Part shown: positions 50,965-56,420 of the stretch, in pieces
Layout of the letters: each line of letters opens with the position of its first letter
How positions within the stretch are numbered: the first letter of the stretch is position 1
Sequence record: PZ476263.1
Reading direction: 5' to 3' (one strand)
From: a phage
Length of the DNA: 64,000 nt
Program-made: the position numbers and the translations under genes
The notes under the pieces: generated by a model
Database searches by the model: none
The model's input: only the letters and a program-made list of their open reading frames with translations
Told to the model about the DNA's origin: nothing

Positions 50965-51047
50965 GCGCGGGTGTATCTCAACGGTCTTCTAAACCGTCGT
51001 TAATCGAGTAATTGGAGTATGAAGGTTCGAGTCCTTCCTCCCGCGCT
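50965..51047 (+). tRNA. Atypical tRNA-like element, possibly tRNA-Arg(TCT) or a pseudo-tRNA
   Basis: Canonical features: acceptor pairing gcgcggg/cccgcgc, T-arm gaagg-ttcgagt-ccttc, anticodon arm acggt-cttctaa-accgt. Atypical features: only 9 nt where the D-arm should be, a 23-nt variable region, 2 extra nt between the T-stem and acceptor, and no encoded CCA. Confidence 0.35.
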
Positions 51048-51064
51048 AAGTTCTTTTAAATGCA

Positions 51065-51140
51065 GGCCCTTTAGCTCAGTGGTTAGAGCAGGCGACTCAT
51101 AATCGCTTGGTCGCTGGTTCAAGTCCGGCAAGGGCCACCA
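51065..51140 (+). tRNA. tRNA-Met(CAT), elongator type (could be Ile2 if C34 is modified)
   Basis: Full cloverleaf folded by hand, G1-C72, anticodon loop ctCATaa, CCA encoded. Confidence 0.85.
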
Positions 51141-51157
51141 CTCAATAGTTTATTTAC

Positions 51158-51249
51158 AAGATCATTCAGTAATTAAGCGAATGCCGGAAGCAGAACCGGA
51201 TCAACAAATGCGTACGGGTGTCATCGCCACCTAGCAACTGAATGATCTT
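51158..51249 (+). ncRNA. Long hairpin: 13-bp perfect inverted repeat enclosing 66 nt
   Basis: aagatcattcagt (51158-51170) pairs with actgaatgatctt (51237-51249). Inner stem ccgg-N8-ccgg. Followed by TTTT. Confidence 0.5.
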
Positions 51250-51276
51250 TTAAATTCTCTTAACCTCATAAAATCC

Positions 51277-51305
51277 TTGACATAATAAGAAATTCCTGAT
51301 AACAT
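51277..51305 (+). promoter_or_regulatory. Promoter TTGACA-N17-TAACAT with a TGn extended -10
   Basis: -35 at 51277-51282 and -10 at 51300-51305. Confidence 0.55.
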
Positions 51306-51332
51306 CTCTATATCGACTTAATTGAGGTGCTT

Positions 51333-51707
51333 ATGCCTAAAGCTGAAATCGTTACTAGAAAACGGGGTCGGCCTACTACAGAGGAAAGTATCGCTATCAA
51401 CACCGAGAAGGCGATTCTTCATGCTCGTTCAGAGTTTGCAAGACTTACTCCTCAGGCGATTAAGACTCTGGAAGGTCTACTCACTTCCGGTACAGAGAAA
51501 GTTAAAGAAACTACTGCGAAGTATATTCTTGAACAGGCTGAAAAAGCTAACAATCTGTACACGATGGAAGATAATGAGGAAGATTTAGCGGGAGGTTCAA
51601 CTTCTGCGGATTCTGATACTCATAAAGGCCCTTCTGATGTATTTAAGGATGCAATTCCTCTTACTACTCAAATCAGAGAGTATAAAATTGCAGAAGGTGA
51701 AAACTAA
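51333..51707 (+). CDS. Hypothetical DNA-binding-like protein; weak small-terminase candidate (124 aa)
   Basis: RKRGRPTTEES N-terminus and an acidic tail. ATG at 51333 follows GAGGTG. Confidence 0.3.
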   Translation: MPKAEIVTRKRGRPTTEESIAINTEKAILHARSEFARLTPQAIKTLEGLLTSGTEKVKETTAKYILEQAEKANNLYTMEDNEEDLAGGSTSADSDTHKGPSDVFKDAIPLTTQIREYKIAEGEN

Positions 51708-51727
51708 AGGCTCTTAGGGGCCTTTTA
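51707..51727 (+). terminator. Rho-independent terminator
   Basis: Stem aaggctc/gggcctt with a 4-nt loop, followed by TTAT. Overlaps the stop codon. Confidence 0.55.
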
Positions 51728-51946
51728 TTAATAGTTCTTTTTAATGTAGTTGCTTGGTGTAATTTTTCGGCAGATGGCTGCAACCATCCTATCGATAACT
51801 CATAGTTAGTGCTGCAAACACTGGCTACCTTAAAGAGAATTTAACTCGTCGAATAAGGAAGATGCTGATCTCAAAGTGAGGTCACTTACCGCAAGGGGTG
51901 TGCATAGACTCCCGCTTCCGAATAGACTATGTGGCGAGATGTATTT

Positions 51947-52028
51947 GGGGACGTGGCAGAGCGGTCGAATGCGCCTGACTGTAAATCAGGTATCCCACAC
52001 GGTGGTTCGAATCCATCCGGCCCCACCA
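51947..52028 (+). tRNA. tRNA-Tyr(GTA)
   Basis: Anticodon arm cctga-ctGTAaa-tcagg, 10-nt variable region, T-arm ggtgg-ttcgaat-ccatc, one A-G mismatch in the acceptor stem, CCA encoded. Confidence 0.8.
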
Positions 52029-52282
52029 AATTAAGAAGCAGGGTCGCTACCTGCAAGTCGTCGGACTGAGATTCCCTGAATAAGACCCGACTTTAAGGCG
52101 TACAAATGTTCGGTTTAAAGTCCCTTATCTCACAGTCGAAACGGCGCATCCTATTCAGCCGTGATGTGATGTAATCACTGACCTCTTTGAAGGATCATGG
52201 CATCCTATACAAAAAAAAAACCTGAATAATTTAGGTTTTAATGCCTGGGGGTTCGTAGCCCTATTACTAAGAGGACTTAACT

Positions 52283-52492
52283 ATGTTTACTATTAAAATT
52301 ATTGATATCGATGGAAATGAGACGGGTGTTTCAACAAGGCACTACAGATGGTACTCAAAAATGAATATTTTTGATGTGGAGGGTGGAGAATCTGTTTCTG
52401 TACCACCAAAAAGTCGTGCTTATGTAATGAATGACAAAGGAATAACCATCGGTAGATACACAAATACAGCGGATCAACGCGTTCTTAATTAA
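52283..52492 (+). CDS. Hypothetical protein (69 aa) embedded in the tRNA island
   Basis: RBS AAGAGGA. Its stop lies 1 nt before tRNA-Gly. Confidence 0.55.
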   Translation: MFTIKIIDIDGNETGVSTRHYRWYSKMNIFDVEGGESVSVPPKSRAYVMNDKGITIGRYTNTADQRVLN

Positions 52493-52493
52493 A

Positions 52494-52568
<75 letters not shown>

Positions 52569-52667
52569 AACACATATCCATCTGACGCGTTTATGGGGTT
52601 GACCTGATCAATCTTCTCCTAATTTCGTGTGAAGACATCATGATTGTTGGGATGGATAAACTTATTT

Positions 52668-52742
52668 TGGGGATTAGCCAAGCGGTAAGGCATCGGATTT
52701 TGATTCCGACATTCACTGGTTCGAGTCCAGTATCCCCAGCCA
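52668..52742 (+). tRNA. tRNA-Gln(TTG)
   Basis: Acceptor tggggat/atcccca, anticodon arm tcgga-ttTTGat-tccga, T-arm actgg-ttcgagt-ccagt, CCA encoded. Confidence 0.85.
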
Positions 52743-52747
52743 ATTAA

Positions 52748-52824
52748 CGGTGTGTAGCGCAGCTTGGTAGCGCATCTGGTTTGGGGCCAGAGGGCCGTTG
52801 GTTCGAATCCAACTACACCGACCA
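52748..52824 (+). tRNA. tRNA-Pro(TGG)
   Basis: Acceptor cggtgtg/tacaccg, D-arm gcgc-agcttggta-gcgc, anticodon arm tctgg-ttTGGgg-ccaga, T-arm gttgg-ttcgaat-ccaac, CCA encoded. Confidence 0.9.
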
Positions 52825-52899: not shown

Positions 52900-52939
52900 A
52901 TTTGGTCTTTCGGTGATAAAATACTCAAAGGAGGTAATC

Positions 52940-53302
52940 ATGCCAGATTTTAAAAAATATTTATTCATTGCTATATTCATAGTGTTCTTAATTTCATCTG
53001 CTAAGCTTTATCTTAATCATGTTGAATCAGTAGGTTACGAAAAAGGTTTCAATGTTGCTAACTCTGCTTGGGTAAAAAAGGCAGGGGAGTACAAAAAGAA
53101 AATTGACGATACATATGAAGAAAACAAGCGTCTTAACGAGGAGCTTTCCCGATCCAATCAGGAAAAGATAAAGGATGAAAAGGCAAAAGAAGAAAAAATT
53201 ACCGATATGCAGATCGAATACTACAAGTCTGAAAAAGGTAAGGATGTCTTTGACAATAATGAAATAATTGACATATACAACGAATCCTTGGGGGTAAAAT
53301 GA
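52940..53302 (+). CDS. i-spanin (Rz-like) candidate (120 aa)
   Basis: N-terminal TM YLFIAIFIVFLISSA followed by a charged coiled-coil. RBS GGAGGT. A TGaTAAAAT extended -10 lies at 52914-52922. Confidence 0.55.
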   Translation: MPDFKKYLFIAIFIVFLISSAKLYLNHVESVGYEKGFNVANSAWVKKAGEYKKKIDDTYEENKRLNEELSRSNQEKIKDEKAKEEKITDMQIEYYKSEKGKDVFDNNEIIDIYNESLGVK

Positions 53303-53598
53303 GAAAAATATTTATAGCTTTCTTCTTTTGCTTTTTACTTTCCGGTTGTCAATCAGCAGAAATCTGTGGCCCTACGGAAGAAGTAACTATTGAGAAGATT
53401 CTTCCTAAACCTGATCTTGAACTCCTTGTCAAAGAAAAGGAAAAGAAGCTCATCCAGAAGGGATCTACTAATGCAGACGTTGGAAAGGTCATGAGTGATA
53501 ACAATCTTCGTTCCAATCGTATAGAGCGCCGTTGGGAAGGCTTAAGGACTTACGTTTGCAACAGTTTCAAAAATATCCCTAAAGAATACTGCGATTAA
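53299..53598 (+). CDS. o-spanin (Rz1-like outer-membrane lipoprotein) candidate (99 aa)
   Basis: Lipobox FLLSGC after a signal sequence. ATGA overlap with the i-spanin gene. Confidence 0.6.
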   Translation: MRKIFIAFFFCFLLSGCQSAEICGPTEEVTIEKILPKPDLELLVKEKEKKLIQKGSTNADVGKVMSDNNLRSNRIERRWEGLRTYVCNSFKNIPKEYCD

Positions 53599-53607
53599 CA
53601 TTGACAG

Positions 53608-53638
53608 GCCCTTGCTTTTATGCAAGGGCTTTATTTTT
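53608..53638 (+). terminator. Rho-independent terminator
   Basis: 8-bp stem gcccttgc/gcaagggc followed by TTTATTTTT. Confidence 0.75.
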
Positions 53639-53695: not shown

Positions 53696-54050
53696 ATGTC
53701 TGCTACATTCGCACCTGCGAGTCGCAAGCAACAAATGGTTCTCGAATCTACAGCACAGATTATGGTAATAGGTGGTGCAGCAGGATCAGGTAAATCATAC
53801 CTTTTACAGTTGATGCCTTTGCTTATTGTAAACGACCCTAAAACAGCCTGCATCATGTTTCGTCGTACTGTACCGCAGATTCGTGGACAAGGTGGCTTGT
53901 TTGACAAAGCTAAAGATATTTATAACCAGCTGCCTCCGGTAGTTAAGCCGAAGTTTAAAGAGAACGAGATGACTGCTACATTCCCTAACGGAGCAACCGT
54001 TAAGTGGCAGTCTATGCAACACGTAAGTGATAAATACGACATCCAGGGGT
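53696..54050 (+). CDS. terL: Terminase large subunit, exon 1 (Walker A)
   Basis: GGAAGSGKS. The ORF stops at TAA 54050-54052, right after KYDIQG. The exon ends on the U at 54050. Confidence 0.8.
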
Positions 54051-54960
54051 AAAAATTTCCTGCCCATCGTATCTTAATCGGTGAAACTCTGTTATAATAA
54101 GTACAGACAATACCGAGATCCATTACCTGAAATGACAGTAGGGAGATATGATGAAAAAATTTGAAATTGTTCCAAGCAAACCTGAATTTTCCGTAAGTGA
54201 AGACGGGCTGATTATGTTTACCTCTACAGGTACTATTCTTAAGCCGTATGTTGATAAGGATGGTTACCACAGGGTTAGAAATTTCTCTGCTGGAGGTAAA
54301 TCTCATTACATCGCCGTTCATCGCGCCGTTGCTGAGGTTTTTGTTAAAAACCCTAACCCAAAAGTGTTTAAGATTGTTAATCACTTGGATAATGTTAAGA
54401 GCAACAATCATAAAACCAATTTGGAATGGACAACCGAATCATTAAACCGAGTTCATGCAGTTCATGCCAACGGTACAGCATCTGTTAGAAACAATGTTAA
54501 ATTTACAGAAGGTCAAGTCAGAAAGGTGTGTGAACTTTTGAGCTTGGGCTATCGGATAGTTGATATTGTGAAACTTACAGGCGTTGATAGATTCAATGTG
54601 ATGGCAATTAGAAGCGGAAAATCTTGGGTTCAGATCTCTTGTGAGTTTGAAACTTTAAAAGTAGAAAGAAAAGATACACTGTCTGAAAAGACGATTCTTT
54701 GGATTAAAGACCAAATTAATCGCCAAAGGTCAGATGATGAAATACTTTTAATGTCGGTAAGACTTACAAAAGAAGAGCTTGAAAGAGCAAAGAAGATTAT
54801 TTCATTGATGGATTGTAACGACTAATGCTGATGAGTGTAAGCATGTAGGGCCAAGCGGTCCGAAACGATACGCCAAGGATGGAAGATATAGTCTGAACTA
54901 TATGGTGACATATAGCTGCTTAAGCAGGGTTAAGATTAGCGATCTTAATCGAACACAATG
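54051..54960 (+). mobile_element. Group I intron (td-like, IA2-type core) carrying an HNH homing endonuclease gene
   Basis: The 3' part gaagatatagtctgaactatatggtgacatatagctg...ggttaagattagcgatcttaatcgaacacaatg closely parallels the T4 td intron 3' end as I recall it. It starts after a U and ends in G. Confidence 0.7.
54148..54825 (+). CDS. Intron-encoded HNH homing endonuclease (225 aa)
   Basis: GYHRV...HRAVAEVFVKNPNPKVFKIVNHLDNVKSNNHKTNLEWTT (I-HmuI / HNH_3-like). RBS AGGGAG. Confidence 0.8.
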   Translation: MMKKFEIVPSKPEFSVSEDGLIMFTSTGTILKPYVDKDGYHRVRNFSAGGKSHYIAVHRAVAEVFVKNPNPKVFKIVNHLDNVKSNNHKTNLEWTTESLNRVHAVHANGTASVRNNVKFTEGQVRKVCELLSLGYRIVDIVKLTGVDRFNVMAIRSGKSWVQISCEFETLKVERKDTLSEKTILWIKDQINRQRSDDEILLMSVRLTKEELERAKKIISLMDCND

Positions 54961-55020
54961 TGGAATTTACATTTATAGGTGTGGACGAAGGCACTCAGTT
55001 TGAGTGGGAGCAGTTAATCT
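54961..55020 (+). CDS. terL: Terminase large subunit, 60-nt exon 2 (Walker B)
   Basis: Joining gives ...KYDIQG-L-EFTFIGVDEGTQFEWEQLI, in frame. Ends on the U at 55020. Confidence 0.65.
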
Positions 55021-55341
55021 AGCTGCCTCGTACAGTAATGTACGATGAGAAATTCTTGTGAATTGCTGGAAAATCCTTAGAGCTTGTAAAACTACAACAT
55101 GACCTGCAAAGGTGAGTGTGAATGTTAAAAATTTACAAGATTGGACGATCAGCCTCCAAGCCTCTTTACGAGAGGAAGGTTCAACGACTAGCCGAAAGGC
55201 GTAGATCATAAGCAAATGATGATCGAAGTGCAAGACCCCTACCTTATTGGTAGGGTGAAGATATAGTCTGATCTGCATGGTAACATGCAGCAGTGCTTGA
55301 GTGCACGGCAACGAACTTGCGATCCGTTGCGAACATAACAG
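55021..55341 (+). mobile_element. ORF-less group I intron (td-like core)
   Basis: gaagatatagtctgatctgcatggtaacatgcagc...gcgaacataacag mirrors the 3' core of intron 1. Internal ggttcaacgactagccgaaaggc. The alternative 3' end at 55329 is also in frame. Confidence 0.6.
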
Positions 55342-56420
55342 TAGAATACATGATGTCTCGTCTTCGTTCCAGTTCTTCTTACCCTTCACGAATGGTAATT
55401 AGTTGTAACCCTGATCCTGATCATTATCTTCGTAAGATGGTTGATTGGTATCTCGATAAGGATGGTTATCCTGATCCTACAAAGGATGGAGTCATTCGAT
55501 ATTTCGTTCGAGTTGATGACCAATACATGTGGGGCGAATCAGTAGAAGAGCTTAAGAAGCGGTACGGTAAGAAATGTAAGCCTGTTTCTTTTACATTTAT
55601 ATCTTCTACTATTTACGATAACCCACCAATGCTTATTAACAACCCAGACTATCTAGCACAGCTGGAAGGTCTTAATGAGGTTGACAGAGCAAGACTGTTA
55701 CACGGCAACTGGGATGCACGTCCTCAGGGTGCTAACTATTTTAAACGTTCTTTTCTTAAAGAGGTTGATGTTCTTCCTTTAGGTGTAGATAAGGTTAGAT
55801 CATACGATAAAGCAGGAACTGAACGTTCTACAGGTAATAAAACACCTGACTTTACAGCCGGAATCGGTGTGGCGAGAGATCAGGACGGAATTTATTATCT
55901 TTTTGGCGATTATTGTGAAGAGTTTGTTGATGAAGGTGATTGGTCTACTGGCAACCTTGGTAGGTTCTGTAAGAAAGCTGGTGAACGAGATACGATCATT
56001 ATGAAACAAGCAATTCATGACGGTGATGATGTTAGAATAATATTCCCTGTTGACCCTGGTCAAGCGGGTATTGCTGAATTCACTACATCTTCCCGAGAAT
56101 TATTAAATCAAGGATTCATTGTTGAGAAAGACCCAACTCCTGGTAACAAGAAGAAGCTTGTACGCTTCTCTCCGTTTGCTAACCTTGCTCAGAACGGATT
56201 TGTTAGGATTGTTAAAAAGTCTTTCCCTTTGGATACCTATGAAGCATTAATGAAAGAGCTTGAATCTTTCAATGGTGAAAGGTCAACAGGGACACGTAAA
56301 GATGACTGGGTGGATGCTATCTCAACCGGAATAAATTTCCTTGAGAAAACAGAAATAGTCAGGGCTGTTACAATACCACGACCTTCTGCCCCAACACTTT
56401 ATTCGAAGTATCGACGATAA
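55342..56420 (+). CDS. terL: Terminase large subunit, exon 3 (nuclease domain)
   Basis: ...L-EYMMSRLRSSSSYPSRMVISCNPDPDH.... Spliced total is 1494 nt, giving 497 aa. Confidence 0.7.

Follow-up and report, generated by a model that had tools for sequence, protein, structure and literature searches.

A phage large terminase gene in three pieces: evidence for two td-like group I introns

In the phage sequence PZ476263.1, of which a stretch of 64,000 nucleotides (nt; hereafter the window) was analyzed, the large terminase gene terL occupies positions 53696-56420 of the plus strand, to which all coordinates of the terL exons, the introns, and the intron-borne ORF below refer, and is interrupted by in-frame stops. 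The reading frame, whose start lies at 53696, includes the Walker A motif GGAAGSGKS; it is halted by TAA at 54050-54052 directly 3' of the residues KYDIQG, is open again from 54961, is shut by TAG at 55019-55021, and ends in a final open stretch which begins before 55342 and runs to the stop codon at 56418-56420. The question raised by this locus is whether the three pieces are joined by splicing into a single terminase or belong to a broken gene and, if they are joined, at which nucleotides. The three-piece anatomy, the stop after KYDIQG, and the subsequent reopenings, all described in an initial annotation made from the sequence alone, were confirmed from the open reading frames (ORFs). Rfam matches, base-by-base helix checks, covariation, and comparison with homologues all support the further proposal of that annotation, and it is very probable that two independent group I introns of subgroup IA2, which resemble the T4 td intron, divide terL into three exons. 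From these sources we infer that the terL message is spliced.

Predicted exon junctions and terminase

Joining 53696-54050, 54961-55014, and 55342-56420 gives a message for a predicted TerL of 495 amino acids (aa) which is exactly collinear with its intron-less homologues, in agreement with the earlier suggestion that comparison with intron-less terL would place the three segments along one protein. Exon 1 (53696-54050) encodes aa 1-118, including Walker A, together with the first base of the Leu119 codon; its DNA is 88% identical to the intron-less terL of phages UPEC06 and LTH01 up to 54048, Pfam Terminase_6N was matched on the spliced protein, and the TAA which closes its frame spans the 5' splice site of intron 1. 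Exon 2 (54961-55014) comprises just 54 nt, which complete the Leu119 codon (its last two bases), encode aa 120-136 (EFTFIGVDEGTQFEWEQ), and open the Leu137 codon (its first base); FIGVDE, with Walker B and the catalytic Glu, is part of this exon, which is collinear with the terL genes of UPEC06, LTH01, phiTE (JQ015307), and rV5 (NC_011041). Exon 3 (55342-56420) contributes the last two bases of the Leu137 codon, aa 138-495, and the stop codon TAA at 56418-56420, encodes an RNaseH-like nuclease domain (Pfam Terminase_6C), and is 81.5% identical in DNA to intron-less terL. On the version of the spliced product given in the initial annotation, Terminase_6N scored 74.9 bits (cut-off 22) and Terminase_6C 29.8 bits (cut-off 22.6), as for a T4-like large terminase.

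A tblastn search with the spliced protein returned one full-length piece on the intron-less terL of Escherichia phages A5-4, UPEC06, LTH01, A73, W70, and A7_1. Identity of the spliced TerL was about 92% (92.6%) to six Escherichia phages and ~83% to many Certrevirus phages. The terL region is unsplit in most homologues, 80% or more of it being covered at a single place in 841 of 919 matching records.

The junctions of intron 1 (54050/54051 and 54960/54961) are the only ones which restore the Gly-Leu-Glu of the homologues, and they coincide with the top P1 helix (GGGU/GCCC). These sites, and the 3' site of intron 2 at 55342, had been placed correctly by the initial annotation; its 5' site of intron 2 (55020/55021) was borne out neither by the homologues nor by P1. 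Comparison with homologues and pairing instead places the 5' splice site of intron 2 at 55014/55015, 6 nt further upstream, so that exon 2 is predicted to be 54 nt and TerL 495 aa long rather than the 497 aa first proposed. Intron-less homologues are 495 aa long and read ...FEWEQLEYMM..., whereas the junction at 55020/55021 yields ...FEWEQLILEYMM..., adding a pair of residues (IL) that is missing from the intron-less homologues and also from phiTE, rV5, and TH18 (vB_EcoM_TH18, ON075799). At the DNA level, the matches on UPEC06 terL fall at nt 1-353 (exon 1), nt 356-410 (the middle piece), and from nt 404 to the end (exon 3), and the three exons adjoin on both UPEC06 and LTH01 terL with neither gap nor overlap; the intron-less UPEC06 gene includes GATATTCAGGGATTGGAGTTTACC. 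In the RNA, a cut after U55014, between CAGU and UAAUCUAGCUGCC, combined with the 3' site between G55341 and U55342, would give CAG-UUA-GAA-UAC. The predicted junctions are thus ...CAGGGGT followed by TGGAATTT... for exons 1 and 2 and ...GAGCAGT followed by TAGAATAC... for exons 2 and 3, with the predicted junction peptides YDIQGLEFTFIGVDEGTQFEWEQLEYMMSR; the exon 2/exon 3 join is predicted as CAGTTAGAATAC under the 55014 site and as CAGTTAATCTTAGAATAC under the 55020 site, where the DNA junction would be CAGTTAATCT followed by TAGAATAC.

Both introns exhibit the hallmarks of group I splice sites, namely a U before the intron engaged in a U.G pair of P1, a terminal G (54960 and 55341), and a P10 pairing; the earlier remark on the preceding U and the terminal G is thereby confirmed. 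When every U/G combination was scanned, the top U.G-closed P1 helices were those at U54050.G54062 (4 base pairs, bp) and at U55014.G55022. The former (54047-54050 with 54062-54065) is the GGGU/GCCC helix of intron 1, while the latter (55007-55014 with 55022-55029) has the core GCAGU/GCUGC and extends to 7 of 8 pairs. The P10 guide of intron 1 (54054-54060, against 54962-54968 of exon 2) is in register, with 6 of 9 pairs formed, and that of intron 2 (55018-55021, UCUA) is in register with the start of exon 3 (55342-55345, UAGA) at all four positions. The 3' boundary of exon 2 is fixed by P1, P10, and the homologues together.

It is highly unlikely that intron 2 is instead spliced after U55020, in which case exon 2 would comprise 60 nt and TerL 497 aa, an additional Ile-Leu following Gln136-Leu137. 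That junction is in frame, follows a U, and falls on the first base of the TAG stop, paralleling the position of the intron 1 site inside TAA. Set against this, the sequence in UPEC06, LTH01, phiTE, rV5, and TH18 alike is Q-(L/I)-(E/D)-Y, without a two-residue insert; no usable U.G-closed P1 is available at U55020, whose pairing was not among the six best P1 candidates listed in the scan, the helix at U55014 (5 contiguous bp and 2 more) being the best; and 55018-55021 has to serve as P10 guide to the 3' exon. The first hairpin of the Rfam alignment (54990-54998 with 55019-55027) was also considered as P1 of intron 2 and was rejected, as its U.G pair at U54995 would splice into a stop codon and remove conserved residues. 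Exon 2 contains a second CAGU (54996-54999) which can pair with the guide of intron 2 (CAGU/GCUG, 4 bp); located 15 nt upstream of the 5' site proposed here, it may represent a cryptic in-frame site, whose use would delete FEWEQ.

Ribozyme cores of the two introns

The Rfam group I model (RF00028), by which the initial annotation had suggested that both introns be checked, recognized intron 2 in full and intron 1 in part. Intron 2 (55015-55341, 327 nt) contains no credible ORF and was matched over 54986-55290 and the full model (1-253) with 78.7 bits (gathering threshold 50; E 2.5e-18); its fold was better than those of all 100 shuffled sequences (z = -3.6). Following P1, its helices are P2 (55029-55034 with 55039-55044), P3 (55054-55060 with 55229-55235), P4 (55065-55069 with 55149-55153), P6 (55161-55166 with 55170-55175), P7 (55186-55190 with 55264-55268), P8 (55237-55243 with 55249-55255), and P9 (55273-55279 with 55284-55290). 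Intron 2 belongs to subgroup IA2 because the P7.1 hairpin (GCCGAAAGGC) and P7.2 (55204-55209 with 55219-55224) are present, and it has in addition the P9.2 characteristic of this subgroup (55308-55313 with 55325-55330).

Intron 1 (54051-54960, 910 nt) is organized around an ORF for an HNH homing endonuclease, which is enclosed by P6 (54118-54123 with 54808-54813, AUCCAU/AUGGAU). P1 and P3-P5 are confined to the 97 nt 5' of the ORF, with P3 formed between 54068-54073 and 54867-54872, P4 between 54079-54083 and 54111-54115, and P5 between 54088-54092 and 54103-54107. The elements 3' of the ORF are P7 (54820-54824 with 54889-54893), P7.1 (54825-54829 with 54840-54844), P7.2 (54848-54852 with 54857-54861), the 3' strand of P3, P8 (54873-54875 with 54880-54882), P9 (54898-54904 with 54909-54915), P9.1 (54916-54919 with 54924-54927), and P9.2 (54928-54936 with 54942-54950). 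The presence of P7.1 (54825-54844), P7.2 (54848-54861), and P9.1 plus P9.2 (54916-54950) assigns this intron, too, to IA2.

Both introns possess a group I core, with P3 to P9 including the P3/P7 pseudoknot and J8/7, and all of these helices were verified base by base. Within the 64-kb window, the 11-mer GATATAGTCTG, which belongs to the J8/7-P7 core, has exactly two occurrences, one per intron (at 54885 and 55260); the initial annotation had pointed out this shared core, and the T4 td sequence that it had quoted agrees with the actual T4 record. An unconstrained minimum free energy fold of intron 1 with its ORF deleted recovered P1, P3-P6, P7.1, P7.2, P8, P9, P9.1, and P9.2. The 3' domain of intron 1 folded with z = -2.4, and P7 forms in the 3' domain alone.

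Covariation was assessed on an alignment of the intron 1 3' domain with nine relatives (intron 2, T4 td, T4 nrdB, phiTE terL, W70, Felixounavirus nrdD, and three Vibrio phage introns). With the structure of intron 1, 83.9% of alignment cells were paired, as against 30-39% when the pairing partners were slid, and 23 pairs exhibited changes on both sides. None of 500 shuffles reached the observed covariation on four of five measures, and a single one (1/500) did so on the fifth. The long-range P3 is altered on both strands yet complementary in six introns.

Besides the in-frame alternative 5' site of intron 2 considered above, several points weigh against this interpretation. Intron 1 as a whole is below the Rfam threshold, with only its 3' part matched (54793-54915, 23.6 bits, E 0.0019; gathering threshold 50), and its 5' part alone (54035-54150) gave just a chance match to a small nucleolar RNA. 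Intron 1 is also without P2 and has a P8 of just 3 bp, and given these features it might need splicing help or splice poorly in vitro. In the endonuclease, furthermore, an Asn is found at the position of the metal ligand Asp74 of I-HmuI, the enzyme to which it is compared below.

The sub-threshold Rfam score of intron 1 is expected, because RF00028 also misses the proven ORF-bearing introns of T4 td and nrdB, for which a control on the T4 record (NC_000866, 134000-147000) gave no match at E <= 0.01. The threshold test is uninformative for ORF-containing introns, covariance-model scans systematically missing ORF-bearing group I introns, and intron 1 is under the threshold only owing to the 225-aa HNH gene in its P6 loop. 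P2 is also missing from the closest relatives of intron 1, and the 10-nt P8 (CCAAGGAUGG) is identical in the TH18 homologue while other helices have diverged. On this comparison the missing P2 and the minimal P8 look like traits of the intron lineage and not like decay, and the conservation of this P8 in TH18 argues that intron 1 is functional. The Asn-His pair of the endonuclease occurs also in the phiTE intron enzyme.

Group I introns of Staphylococcus, Bacillus, Lactococcus, and Vibrio phages, as well as the primase/helicase intron of Escherichia phage W70, share 70-79% identity with parts of intron 2. In W70 (OP778610), whose terL is intron-less, the primase/helicase region (374-1412 of the locus compared) contains a group I intron (70.4 bits) and a second stretch, adjoining an HNH gene, which is 79% identical to intron 2; related introns therefore occupy different genes in sister phages. 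No relative of intron 2 was found at the same terL site among the genomes examined. The possibility that intron 2 is the ORF-less intron of rV5 shifted by 22 nt was rejected, the identity being just 57%, the generic level among IA2 introns. Scans of IMG/VR for exact matches to 21-mers from the 5' ends of both introns returned none, and in metagenomes a 17-mer spanning the junction of exon 2 and intron 2 was matched at 94 loci, none of them similar to the terL region by blastn, which marks these as chance matches. Among the IMG/VR relatives of exon 3 (10 loci), no intron was found at the two sites occupied in the window; one locus of this set (L011) has a single group I match, on the minus strand at the locus end.

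The intron 1 endonuclease and the proposed fate of the terL transcript

The ORF in the P6 loop of intron 1 (54148-54825) encodes 225 aa and is preceded by a GGGAG Shine-Dalgarno sequence, from which a second ATG, at 54151, is better spaced; its last 18 nt overlap the 3' strand of P6, J6/7, and P7, and its stop codon TAA lies inside GACUAA. A phmmer search of PDB matched residues 13-114 to 1U3E (I-HmuI) with E 3.6e-12, and with the upstream GGGAG this upholds the initial description of an I-HmuI-like HNH enzyme with its own ribosome-binding site. The equivalents of His75, Asn87, and Asn96 of I-HmuI are retained, as expected of an HNH domain, and PHROG 59 (HNH endonuclease) was matched with E 1.3e-30; Pfam HNH_3 (16.6 bits) and NUMOD4 (18.8 bits) were both under their cut-offs. 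Homology to I-HmuI, which is encoded in the DNA polymerase intron of Bacillus phage SPO1, covers the N-terminal HNH nuclease domain with its shared catalytic His and two Asn, whereas the C-terminal DNA-binding half of I-HmuI has no detectable similarity to the window enzyme. Its identity stayed below 38% against every entry of the phage collection and was 27% against the HNH protein encoded in the terL intron of phiTE; the exact protein was absent from the contig collection. A scan for sigma-70 promoters remained at background level and gave no sign of a separate endonuclease promoter.

The course of splicing and mobility proposed here follows established group I intron chemistry and the homing known for T4 td and SPO1. 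The terL pre-mRNA would be transcribed as a single unit, in which each intron would fold into its ribozyme core, bind the guanosine cofactor, and cut after the U of the P1 U.G pair (U54050 and U55014); the freed 5' exon would then attack after the terminal G (G54960 and G55341), and ligation of the exons would produce the message for the 495-aa TerL. Because Walker B and the catalytic Glu (FIGVDE) are wholly contained in the 54-nt exon, an active terminase would need both splicing events. The in-frame stops TAA (54050-54052) and TAG (55019-55021, within intron 2) would end translation of unspliced RNA and keep ribosomes off the ribozyme, as in T4 td. The HNH enzyme presumably nicks or cuts the intron-less terL of a co-infecting relative, and recombinational repair would spread intron 1. 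Intron 2, which has no endonuclease gene, would most likely spread by co-conversion; being only 54 nt distant, it would probably be copied along with intron 1. Both the endonuclease activity and homing are predicted from likeness to characterized systems.

That terL goes unspliced, whether as a disrupted pseudogene of a defective phage or as a source of separate polypeptides which assemble, as reported for Aeh1 nrdA split by mobE, is exceedingly improbable. There is precedent in that some HNH-interrupted phage genes are unspliced, e.g., CB7_245 and Aeh1 NrdA (PMC7344957), and the minimal P8 and missing P2 of intron 1 would fit such a state. This is opposed by the complete ribozyme cores in both inserts, which are backed by covariation, and by the middle piece, an 18-aa Walker B peptide without a start codon of its own, which makes a split protein implausible. 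The exons are, moreover, under clear purifying selection (92.6% aa identity vs. about 82-88% DNA identity), and related terL introns splice in vivo: the CB7 terL intron, which is common to phiTE, was found to splice by reverse transcription-PCR and sequencing (Buttimer et al., 2020; PMC7344957).

The length of exon 2 is a multiple of three, such that skipping it would leave an in-frame TerL minus 18 residues which would be ATPase-dead; the P10 guide of intron 1 pairs with just 3 of 7 bases of exon 3. It is quite unlikely that exon skipping, from the 5' site of intron 1 to the 3' site of intron 2, or cryptic-site isoforms would tune packaging or arise as by-products, and the same applies to the separate idea that both introns would home as one two-intron unit.

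Intron sites in related terL genes and the genomic setting

The initial annotation had regarded this arrangement as a notable feature, and it is real but less notable than supposed, a three-exon terL with an HNH intron having been published for rV5 (PMC3606486) and splicing for CB7 (PMC7344957). An intron-split terL with an HNH intron is not a new kind of gene and is well documented in Vequintavirinae, and the window terL reveals no new mechanism. The novelty may lie in where intron 2 is inserted and in how very short the Walker B exon is. The combination of an HNH-bearing intron at the position of intron 1, an intron at the position of intron 2, and a 54-nt Walker B exon between them was absent from the collections searched.

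The terL of rV5 was described in 2013 (Kropinski et al.) as three segments with one intron containing a homing endonuclease (PMC3606486), and its GenBank record gives a three-part join (ORF64ABC) with HNH ORF 65; its ORF-less intron scored 84.9 bits in Rfam. Like the window phage, rV5 belongs to Vequintavirinae and has a three-exon terL with two group I introns, one ORF-less (~320 nt) and adjoining the Walker B codons and one HNH-bearing, and the same gene order of spanins, terL, and portal. Unlike those of the window, which lie in the Leu119 and Leu137 codons, the introns of rV5 follow Gly129 (equivalent to 54992/54993) and Ile227; its HNH intron is the distal one, whereas that of the window is proximal, its ORF-less intron shares the 57% identity with intron 2 given above, and the HNH proteins are ~34% identical.

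TH18 carries a homologue of intron 1 at Gly118/Leu119, with the same P1 (GGGU/GCCC), no P2, the same minimal P8 and P7.1 loop, and a core identity of 64%; compensatory changes relative to intron 1 were found in P3, P5, P7.1, and P9. The TH18 intron differs in its length of 245 nt, in having no endonuclease gene, and in its splice site, which is 1 nt off in frame (GGU followed by UUG vs. GGGU followed by UG). The TH18 terL (about 1005-1990, 2256-2500, and 2918-3827 of the locus compared) contains three selfish elements, namely an intein-like insert in Walker A (GGAAG, then C...VVTGN, then SGKS), the ORF-less group I intron of 245 nt, and, at the distal site of rV5, an HNH intron, and its record labels the pieces as separate "terminase large subunit" coding sequences. 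CB7 and phiTE resemble the window in subfamily and gene and in that the Walker B region is interrupted by a td-like IA2 intron (~970 nt) containing an HNH ORF of 225 aa. They differ in that this intron is the only one and lies at Asp127/Glu128 (equivalent to 54986/54987), inside exon 2 of the window, where this site is unoccupied.

When the window is taken together with rV5, TH18, and CB7/phiTE, four different group I intron insertion sites are found in a 64-nt coding stretch around Walker B, in addition to a distal site. Site A (Gly118/Leu119, 54050/54961) is occupied by intron 1 and, with the 1-nt offset, by its ORF-less homologue in TH18; site B (Asp127/Glu128, 54986/54987) by the introns of phiTE and CB7; site B' (Gly129/Thr130, 54992/54993) by that of rV5; and site C (in the Leu137 codon, 55014/55342), among the genomes examined, by intron 2 of the window only. 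Site D (Ile227/Tyr228, in exon 3) holds the HNH introns of rV5 and TH18. The terL gene is consequently a convenient natural system for the repeated targeting of one conserved active-site sequence by homing elements.

Beyond these relatives, T4 td and nrdB share with the window introns the IA2 structure with P7.1 and P7.2, a near-identical J8/7-P7-P9, an ORF placed, as in intron 1, within the P6 loop, and a stop codon where the intron begins, and differ in their host genes; td also has P2, a long P8, and a GIY-YIG rather than an HNH endonuclease. The terL of LL12 has been reported as intron-disrupted (PMC6658697). In Bastillevirinae, which are unrelated phages of Bacillus hosts, terL contains two or three introns (e.g., in SIOphi) separated by short internal exons, with self-splicing demonstrated in vitro and in vivo and exon skipping seen for SIOphi terL (PMC11878797).

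For annotation, the gene is correctly described by the three-part join 53696..54050, 54961..55014, 55342..56420, whereas the output of automatic gene callers would be two truncated "terminase" fragments, with the 54-nt Walker B exon overlooked.

The order of genes around terL is that of phage rV5 (tRNA cluster, two spanin genes, terminator, terL, portal, protease), and the window phage is a member of Vequintavirinae (rV5-like), with no relative at >90% DNA identity in the phage collection searched. The tRNA cluster (50967-52824) lies upstream of the lysis and packaging genes and contains tRNAs called by ARAGORN for Met, Tyr, Gly, Gln, and Pro; a sixth, weak tRNA-like match at 50967-51045 (35.8 bits) was returned by Rfam only, with no ARAGORN call there. 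Two overlapping spanin genes (52913-53631; 129 aa and 99 aa) are located directly 5' of terL, as in rV5, the 99-aa spanin carrying a lipoprotein-type LLSGC signal, and a strong intrinsic terminator (53606-53631) lies 3' of the pair. In a separate observation, the Vibrio phage vB_CoeS_P1 (PV206818) exhibited four consecutive Rfam group I matches (1365-2551 of the locus compared, 50-74 bits) between two coding sequences which are both labeled tail length tape measure protein, suggesting that its tape-measure gene is split by four tandem introns.

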